From assembly GCF_003334335.1 (NCBI RefSeq), contig NZ_QOWQ01000005.1: DNA of 64,000 nt; one strand, written 5' to 3'. Position numbers and translations under genes: made by a program. Positions 47,834 to 57,293 of the stretch are shown piece by piece; the first letter of the stretch is position 1; the number at the start of each line of letters is the position of its first letter. The notes under the pieces were generated by a model. The model did no database searches. It was not told where the DNA came from and saw only the letters and a list, made by a program, of their open reading frames with translations. This stretch comes from Escherichia coli (lineage in GTDB: Bacteria; Pseudomonadota; Gammaproteobacteria; Enterobacterales; Enterobacteriaceae).

Positions 47834-47847
47834 TGTCCTGTGATCGT

Positions 47848-47880
47848 GCCGGATGCGATGTAATCATCTATCCGGCCTAC
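47848..47880. repeat. REP (repetitive extragenic palindrome) element
   Basis: gccggatgcgatg...tatccggcctac between convergent cysE and trmL. Confidence 0.6.
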
Positions 47881-47885
47881 AGTAA

Positions 47886-48359
47886 CTAATCTCTCAATAC
47901 CGCTCCCGGATACCCCAACTGCCGCCAGGCTTCATACACCACTACCGACACCGCATTGGACAGATTCATGCTGCGGCTGTCCGGCACCATCGGAATGCGA
48001 ATTTTTTGTTCAGCGGGCAGGGCATCAAGAATGCTCGCTGGCAGGCCGCGTGTTTCCGGGCCGAACATCAGATAATCGCCATCCTGATAGCTTACGGCGC
48101 TGTGAGCAGGTGTACCTTTCGTGGTGAGGGCGAACAGGCGCTGGGGATTTTCTGCTTCGAGGAACGCGCGATAGTCATGATGACGCGTAACGGCGGTAAA
48201 CTCGTGATAGTCCAGCCCCGCGCGGCGCAGGCGCTTATCGTCCCAGGCAAATCCCATCGGTTCGATGATATGCAGACGAAAGCCGGTATTAGCGCAAAGA
48301 CGGATGATGTTGCCAGTATTTGGCGGAATTTCTGGTTCGTAAAGTACGATGTTTAGCAT
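47886..48359 (-). CDS. trmL: tRNA (cytidine/uridine-2'-O)-methyltransferase TrmL (SPOUT)
   Basis: 157-aa [29 protein letters not shown]. Confidence 0.88.
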
Positions 48360-48394
48360 ACTGCCCCCTTAGTGCGGGGGCAGGATAGCAGAAA

Positions 48395-48550
48395 ATTGGT
48401 GAGCAGTGCGGCCTTTTCCCCTCACCCCGGCCCTCTCCCCGGAGGGGCGAGGGAGAAAAAAAGAGTGCGGTGTCGTTTCAGAGTGAGGGAGTACATACAG
48501 CGCCGAACGGTCCCCTCTCCCTGAGGGAGAGGGTTAGGGTGAGGGGGCGC
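48395..48550. repeat. GC-rich palindromic intergenic repeats (ccctctcc / ggagaggg and ccctcaccc / gggtgaggg units)
   Basis: Several inverted copies of the same short GC-rich units; the same family recurs at 55160-55378. Confidence 0.55.
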
Positions 48551-48556
48551 AAACGA

Positions 48557-49747
48557 CTATGCCGCATTCCCTTTCGCCATGGGAGCCAGTGCCGCAGGCA
48601 ACTCTTTACCCAGCCCCTGCACCAGCGAATCTTGCGTAATTTCGCTGATCGATTTCGCGCCAGTCAGCGTCATCGCCACTTTCATCTCTTTTTCGATCAG
48701 ATTTAGCAGGTTAGCTACACCCGCCTGGCCCGCTGTTGCCAGCGCATACAAGAAAGCACGACCCAGCAGTACGGTGTCGGCACCGAGCGCAATCATACGC
48801 ACGACATCAAGCCCGTTACGAATTCCGCTATCCGCCAGAATGGCTATATCACCTTTCACCGCATCTGCAATAGCAGGCAGTGCACGGGCGGAAGAGAGTA
48901 CACCGTCCAGCTGGCGGCCACCGTGGTTAGAAACCACAATTCCATCAGCACCAAAACGTACTGCATCGCGCGCATCTTCCGGATCGAGGATCCCTTTGAT
49001 CACCATCGGGCCATCCCAGAAATCGCGGATCCATTCAAGGTCTTTCCATGAGATGGACGGATCGAAGTTATTCCCCAGCCAGCCGATGTAATCTTCCAGT
49101 CCGGTCGGTTTGCCGAGATAAGCTGAGATATTACCTAAATCATGTGGACGACCGTTCAGGCCCACATCCCACGCCCATTGCGGATGTGTCACCGCTTGCA
49201 AGTAGCGGCGCATTGCCGCGTTCGGGCCGCTCATACCTGAATGCGCATCACGGTAGCGTGCGCCCGGTGTCGGCATATCCACGGTGAAAACCAGCGTCGA
49301 ACAACCCGCTGCTTTTGCTCGCTCCAGCGCGTTACGCATAAAGCCGCGATCGCGCAGTACATAAAGCTGGAACCACATTGGGCGCTTGATGGCTGGCGCG
49401 ACTTCTTCAATCGGGCAAACGGAAACCGTCGAGAGAGTAAACGGAATACCATGCGCGTCCGCCGCTTTGGCTGCCTGAACTTCGCCACGACGCGCATACA
49501 TGCCACACAAACCCACCGGAGCCAGTGCCACCGGCATCGACAATTTCTCATTAAACAGCGTCGTTTCCAGGCTTAAGTCGGACATGTTTTTCAGAATACG
49601 CTGGCGCAGCGCCACTTCTGACAAATCTTCCACGTTGCGGCGCAGCGTGTATTCAGAATATGCACCACCATCCATATAGTGGAACAGGAACGGCGGCAGA
49701 ATGCGTTGCGCTGCGGCGCGATAATCGCTGGCTGCGGAAATAATCAT
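48557..49747 (-). CDS. lldD: L-lactate dehydrogenase (FMN-dependent)
   Basis: 396-aa alpha-hydroxy-acid oxidase-family ORF. Confidence 0.92.
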
Positions 49748-52175: not shown

Positions 52176-52373
52176 TGCAGGTCTCCTGGAGTCCACGCAC
52201 ATCGTGTAATGAGTCTGTTGCTCATCTCCTTGTCACACGTTGTGTAAAAGTGGCACTGCCAATTGTGTTGTGTAGGGATAATGACAATGAATGGTTAACT
52301 AAATGTTATGTATTGGCAACATTGATGTGAGTTTTAATTGGGAAATTGTGAACCAGAGGTCAGATAAGCGAAG

Positions 52374-52390
52374 AATTGGTAGGGCCAATT
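52374..52390. promoter_or_regulatory. Candidate LldR operator, perfect palindrome AATTGG-TAGGG-CCAATT
   Basis: 17-bp palindrome about 200 bp upstream of lldP; matches my recollection of the lldPRD operator AATTGGCCCTACCAATT on the coding strand. Confidence 0.6.
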
Positions 52391-52546
52391 CTTGTGGGGG
52401 GAGATGTCTGGTAAAGAAAAGGGCAATCCTCATCAGAGAATTGCCCTTAGGTTGTTGATCCAGAGCGCCTTATCTTGCCGGATGCGGCGTGAACACCTTA
52501 CTCGGCCTATAGGAATGTGCAGAATCACCCTGTAGATACTGTGTTC

Positions 52547-53414: not shown

Positions 53415-54002
53415 TTACTTTTGAAAGGCTTTTTTTAAGCTGATTTTGGAAATCAGCTCAGTCAGTGAAAGGACCATTGTTGATCGCACAGCCTGTTGAT
53501 AGCGCTGAATTTGCATTGCATACAAACTGGAGTCTGCTGGTTCAAACTGTGGCGGCGGTGGTAACGCCGCCACGCAGTGCAGTTCACCAAAGGGTCCAAG
53601 GATTTCGTCGTCGGTAAAGGCGTACTCGTTGCCGTCGTGATTTAGCTCTTCACGCAATGCCATCAGCAGTTCCGCATCTTCGTATTCCTGGCGGTTAATG
53701 ACGCCCAACCCGTAAATGAGTTTTAAACGCACAGAAAGATCGCCCAGCGGACCATCGCCGTCGAGTAACGGTTCTACAGCATACTTCACCGCGTAATCGT
53801 CTTTGCGGAATACCTGAAGCACCAGAAGATTTACCGCCTCGGTCAGGAGCTCGACGGCGGTGATCAGAAAGCTTCGCACGGTTTTGCCAGCATTCAGACG
53901 CTCAAGCACACGGTTTTCAAAGGCCTGGGTTTGTTCCATTGTTGCCTGCATATCTGACAATCTGTTATTCGGGCGCAGGGTGTCCTGCGCCTGGTCCACC
54001 AT
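53415..54002 (-). CDS. mtlR: Mannitol operon repressor
   Basis: 195-aa ORF immediately downstream of mtlD. Confidence 0.85.
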   Translation of the reverse strand: MVDQAQDTLRPNNRLSDMQATMEQTQAFENRVLERLNAGKTVRSFLITAVELLTEAVNLLVLQVFRKDDYAVKYAVEPLLDGDGPLGDLSVRLKLIYGLGVINRQEYEDAELLMALREELNHDGNEYAFTDDEILGPFGELHCVAALPPPPQFEPADSSLYAMQIQRYQQAVRSTMVLSLTELISKISLKKAFQK

Positions 54003-55150
54003 TATTGCATTGCTTTATAAGCGGTTACCGCCTCGGATACAACCTCGCTGTTGGCATCAAGACCGGAAATCTGTGCCAGCGCCGCCTGCGGACCTTTGTC
54101 AGCGATCAGTGCTGCCAGTTCCTGAGCCTGCGGATCATCTTCACTGCGGAAGTGCATTGCAGCGGCAATACCTTCAATCAGGTTTTTATGTGGCAGACCA
54201 TATTCCAGCGTACCGAGCAGTGGCTTGATCAGACGGTCGCCAGCACTCAGTTTACGCAGTGGCTGACGGCCTACGCGCTCTACATCATCTTTCAGATACG
54301 GGTTCTCAAAACGGCCGAGAATTTTCTGGATGTACGCCGCATGCTTGTCAGCGTCAAAGCCGTAGCGCTTGATCAATACTGCACCACTTTCTTCCATCGC
54401 ACCTTTTACCACCGCGCGGATTTTCTCGTCGAGAATCGCGTCACGAATGGTCTGATGACCGGCCAGTTTTCCGAGGTACGCGGTTATAGCATGACCCGTG
54501 TTCAGGGTGAAGAGTTTACGTTCGACAAATGCCATCAGGTTGTCGGTTAACTCCATGCCTGGGATGTTCGGCAGTGCGCCTTTGAACTGCGTTTTATCGA
54601 CAATCCATTCGCTGAAGGTTTCTACCGTCACTTCCAGCGGATCGTTAGTTGCCGAAGCCGAAGGCGGTACGATGCGGTCAACGGCGGAATCGACAAAGCC
54701 AACGTGTTCTTCTACCCACGCTTTGGCGTCTTCCGGCAGGGCGTTCATCACATGGCCTTTCAGCTGCGTGGTACCGCGTACCATGTTTTCACAGGCGATG
54801 ATGTTCAGCGGGGATTCATTACCTTGTTCTTTACGTTTCACCAGCCCTTTGGCGATTGCCGGAGCAATACGTTCCAGCACAACCGGGCCAACGGCGGTAG
54901 TGACTAAATCAACCTGAGCAATCAGATCAACGACATCATCACCAATGCTGCTGACAGCATTGACGCCGGAAACGGTATCTACCTGCTCGGTTTCACCAAC
55001 CACATGTACCTGATAGCTATGACGGGCATTCAGGGCATCAAGTACCACCTGATTGACATCGGCAAACGTCAGTTGGATACCCGCGTCTGCCAGCAGTTTA
55101 CCGATAAAGCCACGACCGATATTACCTGCGCCAAAATGTAATGCTTTCAT
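54002..55150 (-). CDS. mtlD: Mannitol-1-phosphate 5-dehydrogenase
   Basis: ORF track 54002..55468 is over-extended through the REP cluster; true N-terminus [17 protein letters not shown] (382 aa). Confidence 0.9.
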
Positions 55151-55159
55151 AGTATTAAC

Positions 55160-55378
55160 CTTCATCAATGTTTTTACCCGAGAGGGCTGGGGTGAGGCTT
55201 TTCCCTCACCCAAACCCTCTCCGTGAGGAGAGGGGCAGCGCCGGATGCGGCGTAAGCGCCTTATCCGGCCTACAAGAACGTGCAAATTCAACAAATTGTG
55301 ATGCATCCTGTAGGCCTGATAAGCGTAGCGCATCAGGCAATTAACCCCACCTTCTCCATGTGGAGAGGGTGGGATTGG
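55160..55378. repeat. REP / GC-rich palindromic repeat cluster in the mtlA-mtlD intergenic region
   Basis: Two canonical REP units (gccggatgcggcg...ccggcctac and gcctgataagcgtagcgcatcaggc) flanked by ccctctcc / ggagaggg palindromes. Confidence 0.7.
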
Positions 55379-55379
55379 A

Positions 55380-57293
55380 TTACTTACGACCTGCCAGCAG
55401 TTCCAGCACTTCATCCACGCTGGTGGTGTGTGCCAGACGCTCGATGACGGACTCATCATCCAGTGCATTGGTCAGGCTGGTGATAACCTGAATGTGCTCG
55501 TTGTTACGGGCAGCAATACCAATCACCAGACGGGCAATGTCATCTTCTTCTTCACCGAAGCGCACGCCTTCCGGGTACTGGCAGAACACGACGCCCGTTT
55601 TCAGTACGCGATCTTTCGCTTCAACCGTACCGTGTGGCACCGCGATAGACTCACCCAGATAAGTCGGGGTCAGTTTTTCACGATCCAGCATCGCCTGAAC
55701 GTATTCCGGCTCAACGTAACCGCCTTTCACCAGCTGCTCGCCAGCAAAACGAATCGCTTCTTCTTTGGTTGCCGCTTTGCGACCGAGGAAGATGTTCTCC
55801 GCGCCTAGCTTGAACAGGTTAGCACTGGAATCGTCAAAGCTGTCTTTCAGGCTGTCTTTTACTTTCTCTTCGTTTGCCGTGTGGCGTTGGGCAGCAACCA
55901 GACGTTCGGTCAGGCTGGTGTACAGGCCGCTGTCGAGGAAGTTGGTCAGCGAAATATGCTGTGCCTGCGGAACCTGGCGCATAGCGCGTTCGGTCAGGTC
56001 ACGGTGAGTGATGACGAGGTCCACATCTGGCGGCAGGTTGTTGATCGCGCTGTTAGTAACAGAAATCTGCGACAGACCTGCATCCTGAATTTTCTTACGC
56101 AGAACGCCTGCGCCCATCGCACTGGAACCCATACCGGCGTCACAGGCAACGATGATTTTACGTACGTGGCTCAGGTCGTTAGTCACATCGCCAGCAGACA
56201 GCGGAGATGCGCCTTTAGACTCAGCTTTCATGTCCTGCATACGACGAGTTGCTGCTTCAATATCATCTTCTTCTTTCACTTTGCTGGTTTTCAGCAAAAT
56301 AGCAGAGACAACGAAGGAGACAGCCATCGCCGCACACACACCCGCGATGTTAGCGAAGTAAGCACCTTTTGGTGTCATCGCCAGTACAGCAAGGATAGAA
56401 CCCGGAGATGCCGGAGAAACCAGACCACCGCCCAGGATAGTCAGCGTGAACACGCCAGTCATACCGCCGAGGATGACTGCGAGGATCAGACGCGGATTCA
56501 TCAGCACATACGGGAAGTAGATTTCGTGGATACCCCCCAGGAAGTGGATGATTGCCGCACCGCCCGCAGACTGTTTAGCGCTACCACGACCAAAGAACAT
56601 GTACGCCAGCAGCACGCCCATACCTGGACCTGGGTTAGCTTCAATCAGGAAGAAGATTGATTTACCCAGTTCATGGGACTGCTGAATACCCAGCGGCGAG
56701 AAGATACCGTGGTTAATGGCGTTGTTGAGGAACAGGATTTTCGCCGGTTCAACAAAGATAGACGCCAGCGGCAGCATGTCATGGACAACCATGAAGTTAA
56801 CGCCCGCAGCCAGCATTTTGGACAGGGCTTCAACAATCGGGCCAATGCCGAGGAATGCCAGAATAGCGAGGATCATCCCGATGATGCCTGCGGAGAAGTT
56901 ATTCACCAGCATCTCAAAACCGGATTTGATCTTACCGTCTACCCAGCGGTCGAAGTGCTTAATGCACCAGCCGCCCAGCGGACCTGCAATCATAGAACCG
57001 AGGAACATCGGCATGTCTGCGCCGACGATAACGCCCATGGTGGTGATGGCACCGACTACGCCGCCACGTTCGCCGCCTACCAGCTTACCACCGGTATAAC
57101 CGATCAGCAGCGGCAGGAGATAAGTGATCATCGGCCCGACCAGCTTCGCCAGCGTCTCGTTCGGTAACCACCCTGTTGGAATAAATAACGCGGTGATGAT
57201 ACCCCACGCGATAAACGCGCCGATATTTGGCATCACCATGTTGCTGAGGAAACGACCAAAGCTTTGCACTTTGATCTTAATATCGGATGACAT
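55380..57293 (-). CDS. mtlA: PTS mannitol-specific EIICBA component
   Basis: 637-aa [34 protein letters not shown]. Confidence 0.93.

Follow-up and report, generated by a model that had tools for sequence, protein, structure and literature searches.

The GC-rich palindromes that lie between lldD and trmL and between mtlA and mtlD in the window (the whole stretch of 64,000 nucleotides analysed here) are, judged by their sequence, almost certainly copies of Box C, known also as PIT elements or TMECO. Box C is a family of intergenic repeats of about 35-56 bp, each built of three blocks, and it is already known and named; the observation is sound and not new, and the original prediction had described the family without recognising its name. 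The explanation that best covers the material as a whole, and which we consider very likely, is that of known Box C units which would provide a REP-like hairpin at RNA 3' ends and whose alleles would be driven by slippage.

Box C has been catalogued in E. coli since the 1990s, under the names Box C (Bergler, 1992), PIT elements (Hoyne and Maher, 2000) and TMECO (Holder et al., 2015; PMC4666352). Further sources on the family are Hoyne and Maher (2002), Hoyne et al. (2000) and Bachellier et al. (1999). Holder et al. (2015) speak of the TMECO as "earlier described as BoxC" and equate it with the PIT elements of Hoyne and Maher. The family has been given 22-32 copies of 50-56 bp in E. coli (Petrillo et al., 2008), and 23 TMECO copies have been tabulated in K-12 (Holder et al., 2015).

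Box C units in two intergenic spacers

The window is of K-12-type E. coli and corresponds to the reverse complement of MG1655 at ~3.77-3.78 Mb, with 100% identity to K-12 records. The four genes concerned are all encoded on the minus strand, so that the two spacers lie 3' of lldD and mtlA and 5' of trmL and mtlD (Table 1). The original prediction had placed the stem-loops at the 3' ends of trmL/lldD and mtlD/mtlA, which is right for lldD and mtlA, but for trmL and mtlD the spacers are at the 5' ends. All four GC-rich units fall between annotated coding sequences and are thus intergenic; the MG1655 RefSeq annotation table gives no repeat features, and hence no name for the units.

Table 1. Genes, spacers, repeat units and the published lldD 3' end in the window.
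Feature	Position	Strand	Sequence, basis or remark
trmL	47886-48359	minus	annotation
lldD-trmL spacer	48360-48556		3' of lldD, 5' of trmL
TMECO 18, type B with one mismatched pair	48418-48453	minus	CCCTCGCCCC-TCC-GGGGAGAGGG-CCG-GGGTGAGGGG
59-nt spacer between the convergent TMECO 17 and 18 units	48454-48512		direct repeat, allele alignment
Published dominant lldD 3' end	48509	minus	Term-seq, Adams et al., 2021 (PMC7815308)
TMECO 17, type A	48513-48546	plus	CCCTCTCCC-TGA-GGGAGAGGG-TTA-GGGTGAGGGG; perfect 10-nt inverted repeat
lldD	48557-49747	minus	annotation
mtlD	54002-55150	minus	annotation, 382 aa
mtlA-mtlD spacer	55151-55379		within the mtlADR operon, 3' of mtlA, 5' of mtlD
Truncated Box C unit, two G-blocks only	55176-55197	plus	ACCC-GAGAGGG-CTG-GGGTGAGG; 3 mismatches to the 21-nt core
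Box C-like unit, 8-nt arms	55203-55235	minus	CCCCTCTCC-TCAC-GGAGAGGG-TTT-GGGTGAGGG; 1 mismatch to the 21-nt core
Canonical REP, first arm of a BIME	55240-55273	plus	REP consensus match, hairpin, weak naRNA4 match
Second REP, inverted relative to the first	55309-55339	minus	inverted repeat with the first REP
Third GC-rich hairpin	55345-55373		CCCCACCTTCTCC-ATG-TGGAGAGGGTGGG; RNA hairpin -23.1 kcal/mol, z -5.2
mtlA	55380-57293	minus	annotation

The motif counts bear out the original claim of one repeat family common to the two spacers. The motif CCCTCTCC/GGAGAGGG has 6 matches in the 64-kb window against 0.82 expected, confined to 48431-48533 and 55215-55369 with none elsewhere, and CCCTCACCC/GGGTGAGGG has 3 against 0.23 expected, all within the same two spacers. 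The compound core GAGAGGGNNNGGGTGAGG is found 4 times in the window against 0.07 expected, and a 21-nt version of the core with 3 mismatches tolerated returns the same four units only. Moreover, the genome-wide motif search that had been suggested recovers about 20 copies per E. coli genome, so the motif is indeed repeated elsewhere: a 51-nt query (48506-48556) had matches at between 1 and 35 places in a genome, with a median of 20 and with 22 in an MG1655 record, and the 94,488 places in all comprised 94,410 on chromosomes and 78 on plasmids. Another Box C unit, CCCCTCACCCTAACCCTCTCCCCAGAGGGGCGAGGGG, is held by the MG1655 spacer between ycjD and fabI (fabI = envM), which we take to be the locus of the first description of Box C. 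The envM region is reported to have been sequenced in Bergler (1992), which Holder et al. cite for that first description.

Each unit consists of a C-rich arm, a loop, a complementary G-rich arm, 3 nt and a near-copy of the G-rich arm. The pairing expressed in the earlier term "inverted pairs" is real, with arms at 48418-48439 and 48525-48546 that are 86% complementary and perfect hairpins at 48513-48522/48524-48533 and 55215-55222/55227-55234, but the actual unit has three blocks, the third being the near-copy of the G-arm. The predicted stem-loops are stable, as had been proposed, at -18 to -28 kcal/mol for single units. Their z-scores are merely -1.2 to -1.9, same-composition shuffles being nearly as stable, because C-runs and G-runs fold well whatever their order. 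The whole lldD-trmL spacer folds at -87.9 kcal/mol (z -3.8 against shuffles) and the whole mtl spacer at -111 kcal/mol (z -7.8).

The identity of the lldD-trmL units rests on published entries. The plus strand at 48513-48546 equals TMECO 17, CCCTCTCCCTGAGGGAGAGGGTTAGGGTGAGGGG, letter for letter (MG1655 3,781,061-3,781,028), and the minus strand at 48418-48453 likewise equals TMECO 18, CCCTCGCCCCTCCGGGGAGAGGGCCGGGGTGAGGGG (MG1655 3,781,121-3,781,156; Holder et al., 2015, Table 1; PMC4666352). Both satisfy the strict TMECO pattern, 5'-CCCTCNCCC N3-6 GGGNGAGGG N3 GGGNGAGGG-3' with one mismatched pair permitted (Holder et al., 2015). Further, each of the five published inverted pairs joins one type A unit (loop TTA) to one type B unit (loop CCG) (Holder et al., 2015), and the lldD-trmL pair, which is one of these five, obeys the rule with TTA at 48513-48546 and CCG at 48418-48453. 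The spacer between its two units contains a degenerate G-block, AGAGTGAGGGAG, at 48480-48491, and is deleted or replaced in other strains. In their three blocks, intergenic position, copy number, A+B inverted pairing and strain variability, the lldD-trmL units agree with the Box C literature.

The mtlA-mtlD units depart from that literature, in that they have 8-nt arms and one is truncated, and the 23-copy table of Holder et al. (2015) has no 3,774,xxx entry for them. The strict TMECO pattern fails on both, the arms of 55203-55235 being 8 and not 9 nt long and 55176-55197 having no C-arm, and the pair carries TTT and CTG, off the A+B rule. Both units fit the relaxed core; the unit at 55203-55235, tested on the minus strand as CCCTCTCC-TCAC-GGAGAGGG-TTT-GGGTGAGGG, also fits the relaxed whole-unit pattern, and its RNA hairpin has a predicted energy of -18.9 kcal/mol. 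The truncated unit stands head-to-head with it across a 5-nt spacer, CTTTT. Going by these matches, the mtl units are best called degenerate or truncated Box C members. They are interleaved with REP elements, as originally described, with one REP following the full unit and the second, inverted, farther along the spacer; the REP part of the mtl query has a median of 18 occurrences per genome. Tested against the REP pattern, a 35-40-nt imperfect palindrome of the form GCC(G/T)GATGCG...CTTATC(C/A)GGCCTAC, the Box C units fail, and only 55240-55273 fits, with its inverted partner 55309-55339; the idea that Box C is a REP variant was rejected on this ground. In its core, the hairpin at 55345-55373 repeats the Box C hairpin at 55214-55234 in direct orientation with 86% identity; two copies thus bracket the REP pair, and the third hairpin is a mere duplicate of the hairpin core and no independent element. 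Rfam 15 covariance models, run up to E = 1 on 10 kb around both loci, gave nothing over the truncated mtl unit or either lldD-trmL unit; the full mtl unit alone was touched, by a sub-threshold match to the REP-derived naRNA4 (55214-55270) that spans its hairpin and reaches into the adjacent REP. The earlier suggestion that the repeats create artefactual reading frames holds for the 5' extension of mtlD: the open frame 54002-55468 (488 aa) is mtlD prolonged across the entire mtl spacer, and the Box C repeats caution against calling it.

Transcript 3' ends at Box C hairpins

The original prediction had named two possible roles for the stem-loops, transcript stabilisation and termination, and mapped RNA 3' ends at lldD and at four other Box C loci give support to a stabilising or 3'-end-defining role; a terminator role is not supported. 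The dominant "primary" lldD mRNA 3' end was mapped by Term-seq to MG1655 3,781,065 on the plus strand (Adams et al., 2021; PMC7815308). Converted to window coordinates in this analysis, with TMECO 17 as the anchor, this end lies 4 nt beyond the point where pairing in the TMECO 17 hairpin stops. The lldD mRNA bears the C-rich complement of TMECO 17, the hairpin lying 29 nt past the stop codon with a predicted RNA folding energy of -18.4 kcal/mol, and a read-through transcript carries TMECO 18 in the G-rich orientation. Moreover, the Box C units at 632098, 847200, 3959467 (TMECO 20) and 4231270 each have a Term-seq 3' end close by, 2-11 nt beyond their Watson-Crick hairpin (Adams et al., 2021). 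Such ends are seen at Box C hairpins of both orientations, and in the G-rich orientation the end comes ahead of the third block. By our own estimate, based on ~1,000-1,200 3' ends per condition and 9.3 Mb of strand, fewer than 0.2 coincidences of a 3' end with a Box C hairpin are expected by chance. This evidence, which is correlative and comes from a single laboratory's data set, fits protection of 3' ends by Box C hairpins. The mtl operon was silent in the media used by Adams et al. (2021), so that the Term-seq evidence covers lldD and the four other loci.

Adams et al. (2021; PMC7815308) place the site 3,781,065 within a significant region of Rho termination and score it 1.49 for Rho and 1.32 as an intrinsic terminator, for which the threshold is 3; the strongest nearby Rho signal, scored 8.4, lies within trmL at 3,781,497. 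A mechanism may be proposed in which lldD read-through transcripts would be stopped by Rho further downstream, inside trmL, and 3'-5' exonucleases would then trim them back as far as the foot of the hairpin formed by TMECO 17. REP hairpins are established barriers to 3' exonucleases, and the transcribed C-arm/G-arm hairpin would act like one, fixing and probably stabilising the mature lldD 3' end. That TMECO 17 sets this end by blocking exonucleases is, from the position of the end, moderately probable; by analogy, trimming back to a Box C hairpin is the simplest reading, being the one established for REP. However, any stable hairpin would act alike, and 3'-end protection thus explains neither the third block nor the conservation of the family.

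The alternative that the hairpins are Rho-independent terminators of lldD and mtlA is largely refuted and highly improbable. Stable GC-rich stem-loops do come soon after the stop codons of both genes, and an RNA 3' end adjoins one of them, but the intrinsic-terminator scan found no T-run after the hairpin at any unit on either strand, which leaves the transcripts without a U-tract, and the published score at the lldD 3' end is below the threshold, in a region that is Rho-dependent. Further, mtlD needs co-transcription through the mtl spacer, and in reporter assays PIT elements had neither promoter nor terminator activity (Hoyne and Maher, 2002, as far as it is relayed by Holder et al., 2015). 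A scan for sigma-70 promoters likewise found nothing at the units.

REP and Box C are neighbours in the mtl spacer and the 3' ends at Box C hairpins look REP-like, but the two have unrelated sequences, and only Box C has a third block. REP elements have a candidate mobilising enzyme, RAYT/TnpA-REP, and gyrase, IHF and Pol I as partners, whereas for Box C we know of no mobilising enzyme or partner. The Correia/NEMIS elements of Neisseria and the enterobacterial ERIC/IRU are also transcribed intergenic repeats, whose stem-loops make processing sites or stabilising ends; they are 100-160 bp long with terminal inverted repeats and, in some cases, target duplications, whereas Box C units are 35-56 bp long and have no terminal inverted repeats. 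REP/BIME (palindromic units; Stern et al., 1984) and Box C are alike in being short, GC-rich, intergenic and hairpin-forming, and in lying at gene ends and inside operons, while REP is some 15-25 times more abundant, with 301-485 palindromic units against 22-32 BoxC copies (Petrillo et al., 2008).

The three-block motif beyond E. coli

TMECO have been reported in 262 genomes, proteobacterial only, with no function found (Holder et al., 2015; PMC4666352), and the wider range described here, together with the control on the third block, therefore adds to the literature. A whole-unit pattern with 22 specified bases, searched in one genome per species, gave at least 120 loci among the matches listed outside Enterobacteria. 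The exact pattern CCCTCNCC-loop-GGNGAGGG-NNN-GGG(T/A)GAGG is present in multiple copies in several distant phyla. An Archangium metagenome-assembled genome (MAG; Myxococcota) has at least 84 copies of the three-block pattern; among the matches listed, a Cyclobacteriaceae MAG (Bacteroidota) has at least 18, a Verrucomicrobia MAG at least 13 and a Ca. Nomurabacteria MAG at least 5, with more in Ignavibacteriaceae, Contendobacter, Burkholderiales and Desulfobacterales. The Verrucomicrobia copies include four inverted pairs, 64-85 nt apart, that resemble the lldD-trmL pair. These genomes outside E. coli are mostly metagenome bins, and several have a GC content of just 36-45%. In Archangium the flanks show no conservation past ~4 nt upstream and ~11 nt downstream, and nothing beyond about 45 nt, which argues that no longer element is hidden there.

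Viral contigs supply a control for the third block. More than 120 loci carry GGGTGAGG as the third block, and likewise more than 120 carry GGGAGAGG, on contigs of 32-74% GC; a composition-matched scrambled third block, GGTGGAGG, had 0 matches in the entire viral collection. The abundance of the two mirror versions and the absence of the scrambled one imply that the third block is under constraint. At the two free positions the Watson-Crick combination is dominant. A mismatch of G in the C-arm opposite A in the G-arm recurs, in K-12 in 15 of 23 copies and on viral contigs in 54 of 312, and a compensating G-C pair was never seen at this position in either set. Among cultured phages Box C is essentially absent: matches came from just 7 records, two of them perfect, and these two resemble E. 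coli DNA inside Campylobacter phage assemblies. As to orientation relative to genes, copies on viral contigs place the C-rich strand in the mRNA at about 2:1, and Archangium shows no bias; with the crude ORF calling used, this bias is at most weak and supports no conclusion.

It is conceivable, if improbable, that Box C is a local branch of a pan-bacterial class of ~32-45-nt three-block elements, and a conserved function, not yet recognised, behind the cross-phylum spread would be similarly unlikely.

Strain variation and its explanations

At least five alleles of the lldD-trmL spacer occur among E. coli strains. The 197-nt allele of K-12 has the complete A+B pair. The 185-nt allele of O157:H7 has a T>A change in TMECO 17 and lacks the 12 nt CCCTCTCCCCGG, which the direct repeat CCCCGG flanks; this deletion takes away the middle block of TMECO 18. 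In the 153-nt allele of B strains and others, the interior of the pair is replaced by 35-bp back-to-back termini of the IS4 family (IS50 inside-end-like). The 72-nt allele of 118UI retains only the stub CTTTTCCCCTCACCCCC, and the 47-nt allele of Nissle and A36 has no Box C and differs also in the last two lldD codons. By coverage thresholds of the search, with a direct count for the IS-end allele, ~2,700 E. coli genomes have the pair, ~800 the IS-end allele (797 counted) and ~1,900 a stub or an empty site. The pair is thus absent from this locus in roughly a third of E. coli genomes, from which it follows that any benefit is small, and Box C units are dispensable. This polymorphism agrees with the genome-wide result that TMECO loci are more variable between strains than control loci (Holder et al., 2015; PMC4666352). 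The mtl spacer keeps an identical Box C part across five diverse alleles, and it is the REP pair that varies there, in 1, 2 or 3 tandem copies, so Box C is not unstable everywhere; in the O55:H7 allele both REPs are missing and the two direct-repeat copies of the hairpin are merged into one. At the DNA level, repeated C- and G-blocks and inverted pairs would promote slippage and deletion and so give rise to many alleles, and slippage or hairpin-driven deletion is a likely account of the lldD-trmL series.

A rival reading is that of a DNA intrastrand triplex, in which the third G-block would fold onto the G-arm of the hairpin in single-stranded DNA. Given the evidence below, we see such a triplex as possible but doubtful, and the same holds for its extension, that stalls of replication or repair make the loci hypermutable and possibly a selected source of variation. 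The three-block layout suits a purine-motif triplex, and in vitro the G-rich strand by itself adopts an intrastrand triplex of high stability, documented by CD and NMR for these exact TMECO sequences, with melting at 70-82 C for the A, B, A mm and B mm oligonucleotide types (Holder et al., 2015; PMC4666352). As in H-DNA, a homopurine block is followed by its mirror copy and G.G:C, A.A:T and T.A:T triads are possible, but in Box C all strands of the triplex come from one DNA strand, as a hairpin with a fold-back, rather than from a duplex mirror repeat. The constraint on the third block and the highly polymorphic lldD-trmL spacer are also consistent with a triplex. However, only the duplex forms once the complementary strand is added, DMS footprinting in vivo showed no protection and detected no triplex at TMECO (Holder et al., 2015), and PIT had no effect on replication in vivo (Hoyne and Maher, 2002, as relayed by Holder et al., 2015). 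The alleles are equally explained by direct-repeat slippage and by hairpin-mediated deletion, and none of the sampled mtl alleles shows a change in the Box C units. A literature search for functional work on intrastrand triplex repeats after 2015 gave citing reviews only. A G-quadruplex of the G-rich strand (G3-N3-G3-N3-G3-N3-G3) that affects transcription or replication is very unlikely, even though the only two canonical motifs in the window (four runs of at least 3 G, 1-7 nt apart) are the two lldD-trmL units. Full-length oligonucleotides gave 18 sharp imino signals in NMR, where 3-4 were expected for an intramolecular quadruplex, and these were taken by Holder et al. (2015) as proof of a triplex; moreover, the adjacent C-arm competes through Watson-Crick pairing, and GG runs in the mtl units break the pattern.

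Two further readings concern what might recognise or move the units. Operator-like sites for a DNA- or RNA-binding protein, with two direct GGGNGAGGG half-sites 12 nt apart and one inverted, would accord with the G-block spacing, which is near one helical turn, and with conserved blocks and variable loops. Yet no such protein is known, the genes flanking TMECO share no function (Holder et al., 2015; PMC4666352), and occurrence in phyla with very different regulators would demand a universal factor, all of which makes this reading quite improbable. A tiny non-autonomous mobile element, REP- or MITE-like and copied by an enzyme acting in trans, with local effects as by-products, would be easier to reconcile with dispersed near-identical copies that include the conserved G/A mismatch, with a copy number of 1 to 35 across strains, with multiple copies in distant phyla and viral contigs, and with the inverted pairs that recur in the Verrucomicrobia genome as at lldD-trmL. 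Against it, filled and empty lldD-trmL alleles show no clean insertion boundary and no target-site duplication, the last two lldD codons also differing; no associated gene is known; Holder et al. (2015) saw no connection of the family with E. coli transposons, phages or plasmids; cultured phages are essentially without Box C; and plasmids hold just the 78 places counted above. Mobility of this kind is on balance unlikely. Known Box C units with a REP-like 3'-end hairpin and slippage-driven alleles remain our preferred explanation.

Overall, the consequence for this window is small, as the annotation of lldD, trmL, mtlA and mtlD is unaffected by the repeats. The stable RNA ends that published maps place just beyond Box C hairpins point to a concrete RNA-level effect for a function-less family, one that is absent from the Box C literature reviewed. 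The lldD-trmL spacer, at 47 to 197 nt, offers a compact natural allelic series for studies of repeat decay. Finally, the three-block motif is spread far wider than published, and its constrained third block keeps the question of its purpose alive. If the pan-bacterial class is true, it would imply a conserved partner or a structure-specific function that needs the third block, for which a mobilising enzyme, a host factor, or a transient triplex or alternative-hairpin switch would be candidates.

Variation in the lldD-trmL and mtlA-mtlD spacers

The two Box C-bearing spacers vary between strains in different segments. At lldD-trmL, 797 E. coli genomes carry CTGTCTCTTGATCAGGAGATCTGATCAAGAGACAG where the inner part of the Box C pair would otherwise lie. 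This segment consists of two back-to-back IS4-family termini (ISEc13/IS50 inside-end-like) without a transposase in between, and it looks like either a solo-ends footprint or a minimal element. In strains that lack Box C at this position (alleles L126 and L127), the final two lldD codons are also changed, and the protein ends in Met-Gln-Leu-stop rather than the Met-Arg-His-stop of the window (48547-48562); the variable segment therefore extends into the lldD coding sequence.

At mtlA-mtlD, two copies of the Box C hairpin core, forming 21-nt direct repeats that are 86% identical, flank the REP pair. In O55:H7-type strains (L130), the spacer is 94 nt long, with a single repeat copy and zero REPs. 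Either the mtl BIME was gained together with a target duplication, or it was lost through recombination between the 21-nt direct repeats. The REP pair has moreover been amplified in tandem with a step of ~101 nt, from one pair in K-12 to two in A1.S1.65 (L129) and three in CFT073 (L128), the corresponding spacer lengths being 227-229 nt, 318 nt and 419 nt. The Box C units beside the REP pairs are unchanged across the three strains.

Features of the compared spacers and loci
Feature	Position	Strand	Remark
GC hairpin, CUGCCCCC-GCACUAA-GGGGGCAG	48361-48383	-	perfect 8 bp; folding -18.1 kcal/mol, z -3.8
G-quadruplex motif	48418-48440	-	sequence pattern
G-quadruplex motif	48525-48547	+	sequence pattern
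naRNA4 (REP-derived), weak match	47842-47877	-	trmL-cysE spacer
STnc380-like (enterobacterial sRNA family)	52349-52457	+	sub-threshold full-length Rfam match, lldP-yibL spacer
naRNA4 (REP-derived), weak match	52467-52507	-	yibL-lldP spacer
21-nt direct repeats	55214-55234, 55349-55369		flank mtl REP pair
CTGTCTCTTGATCAGGAGATCTGATCAAGAGACAG segment	L124 279-313		lldD-trmL spacer of E. coli B / T7 Express; not present in window
Tandem repeats with Box C-like units	L004 3350-3480, L014 4840-5087		Cyclobacteriaceae MAG; unit ...AAGTCCACTCTGCCCCGTAACTCCT-[Box C]-CCGGTGA...

A hairpin at the start of trmL

The GC hairpin, kept in 6/6 alleles compared, adjoins the trmL start codon (48359-48357) and ends 2 nt ahead of the AUG, and it likely contains the trmL ribosome-binding site. 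In published data, nucleotide 4 of trmL (MG1655 3,781,218) is the site of an RNA 3' end, the gene itself holds a strong Rho region (score 8.4), and a reporter was built from the trmL 5' UTR and ORF (Adams et al., 2021; PMC7815308).

Box C and related repeats elsewhere

The STnc380-like match reaches 36.4 bits (E 3e-4); the Rfam gathering score is 60. The weak naRNA4 matches indicate additional REP units, and no Box C motifs lie beside them in the yibL-lldP and trmL-cysE spacers. Outside E. coli, 51/51 identity to the K-12 lldD-trmL Box C region was found in MG065686.1 (13625-13675) and MG065691.1 (160448-160498), labelled in GenBank 'Campylobacter phage A18a/A11a'. Since an identical K-12 copy is implausible in a Campylobacter phage, the match suggests that both assemblies contain E. 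coli DNA. In the Cyclobacteriaceae MAG, Box C-like units lie within tandem direct repeats of ~91-118 nt each, whereas no such embedding was seen in E. coli.

Across the whole 64-kb window, only two canonical G-quadruplex motifs (four runs of G3+, loops of 1-7 nt) occur, both in the lldD-trmL Box C units; hence the Box C family may be heavily represented among genome-wide G-quadruplex predictions for E. coli.
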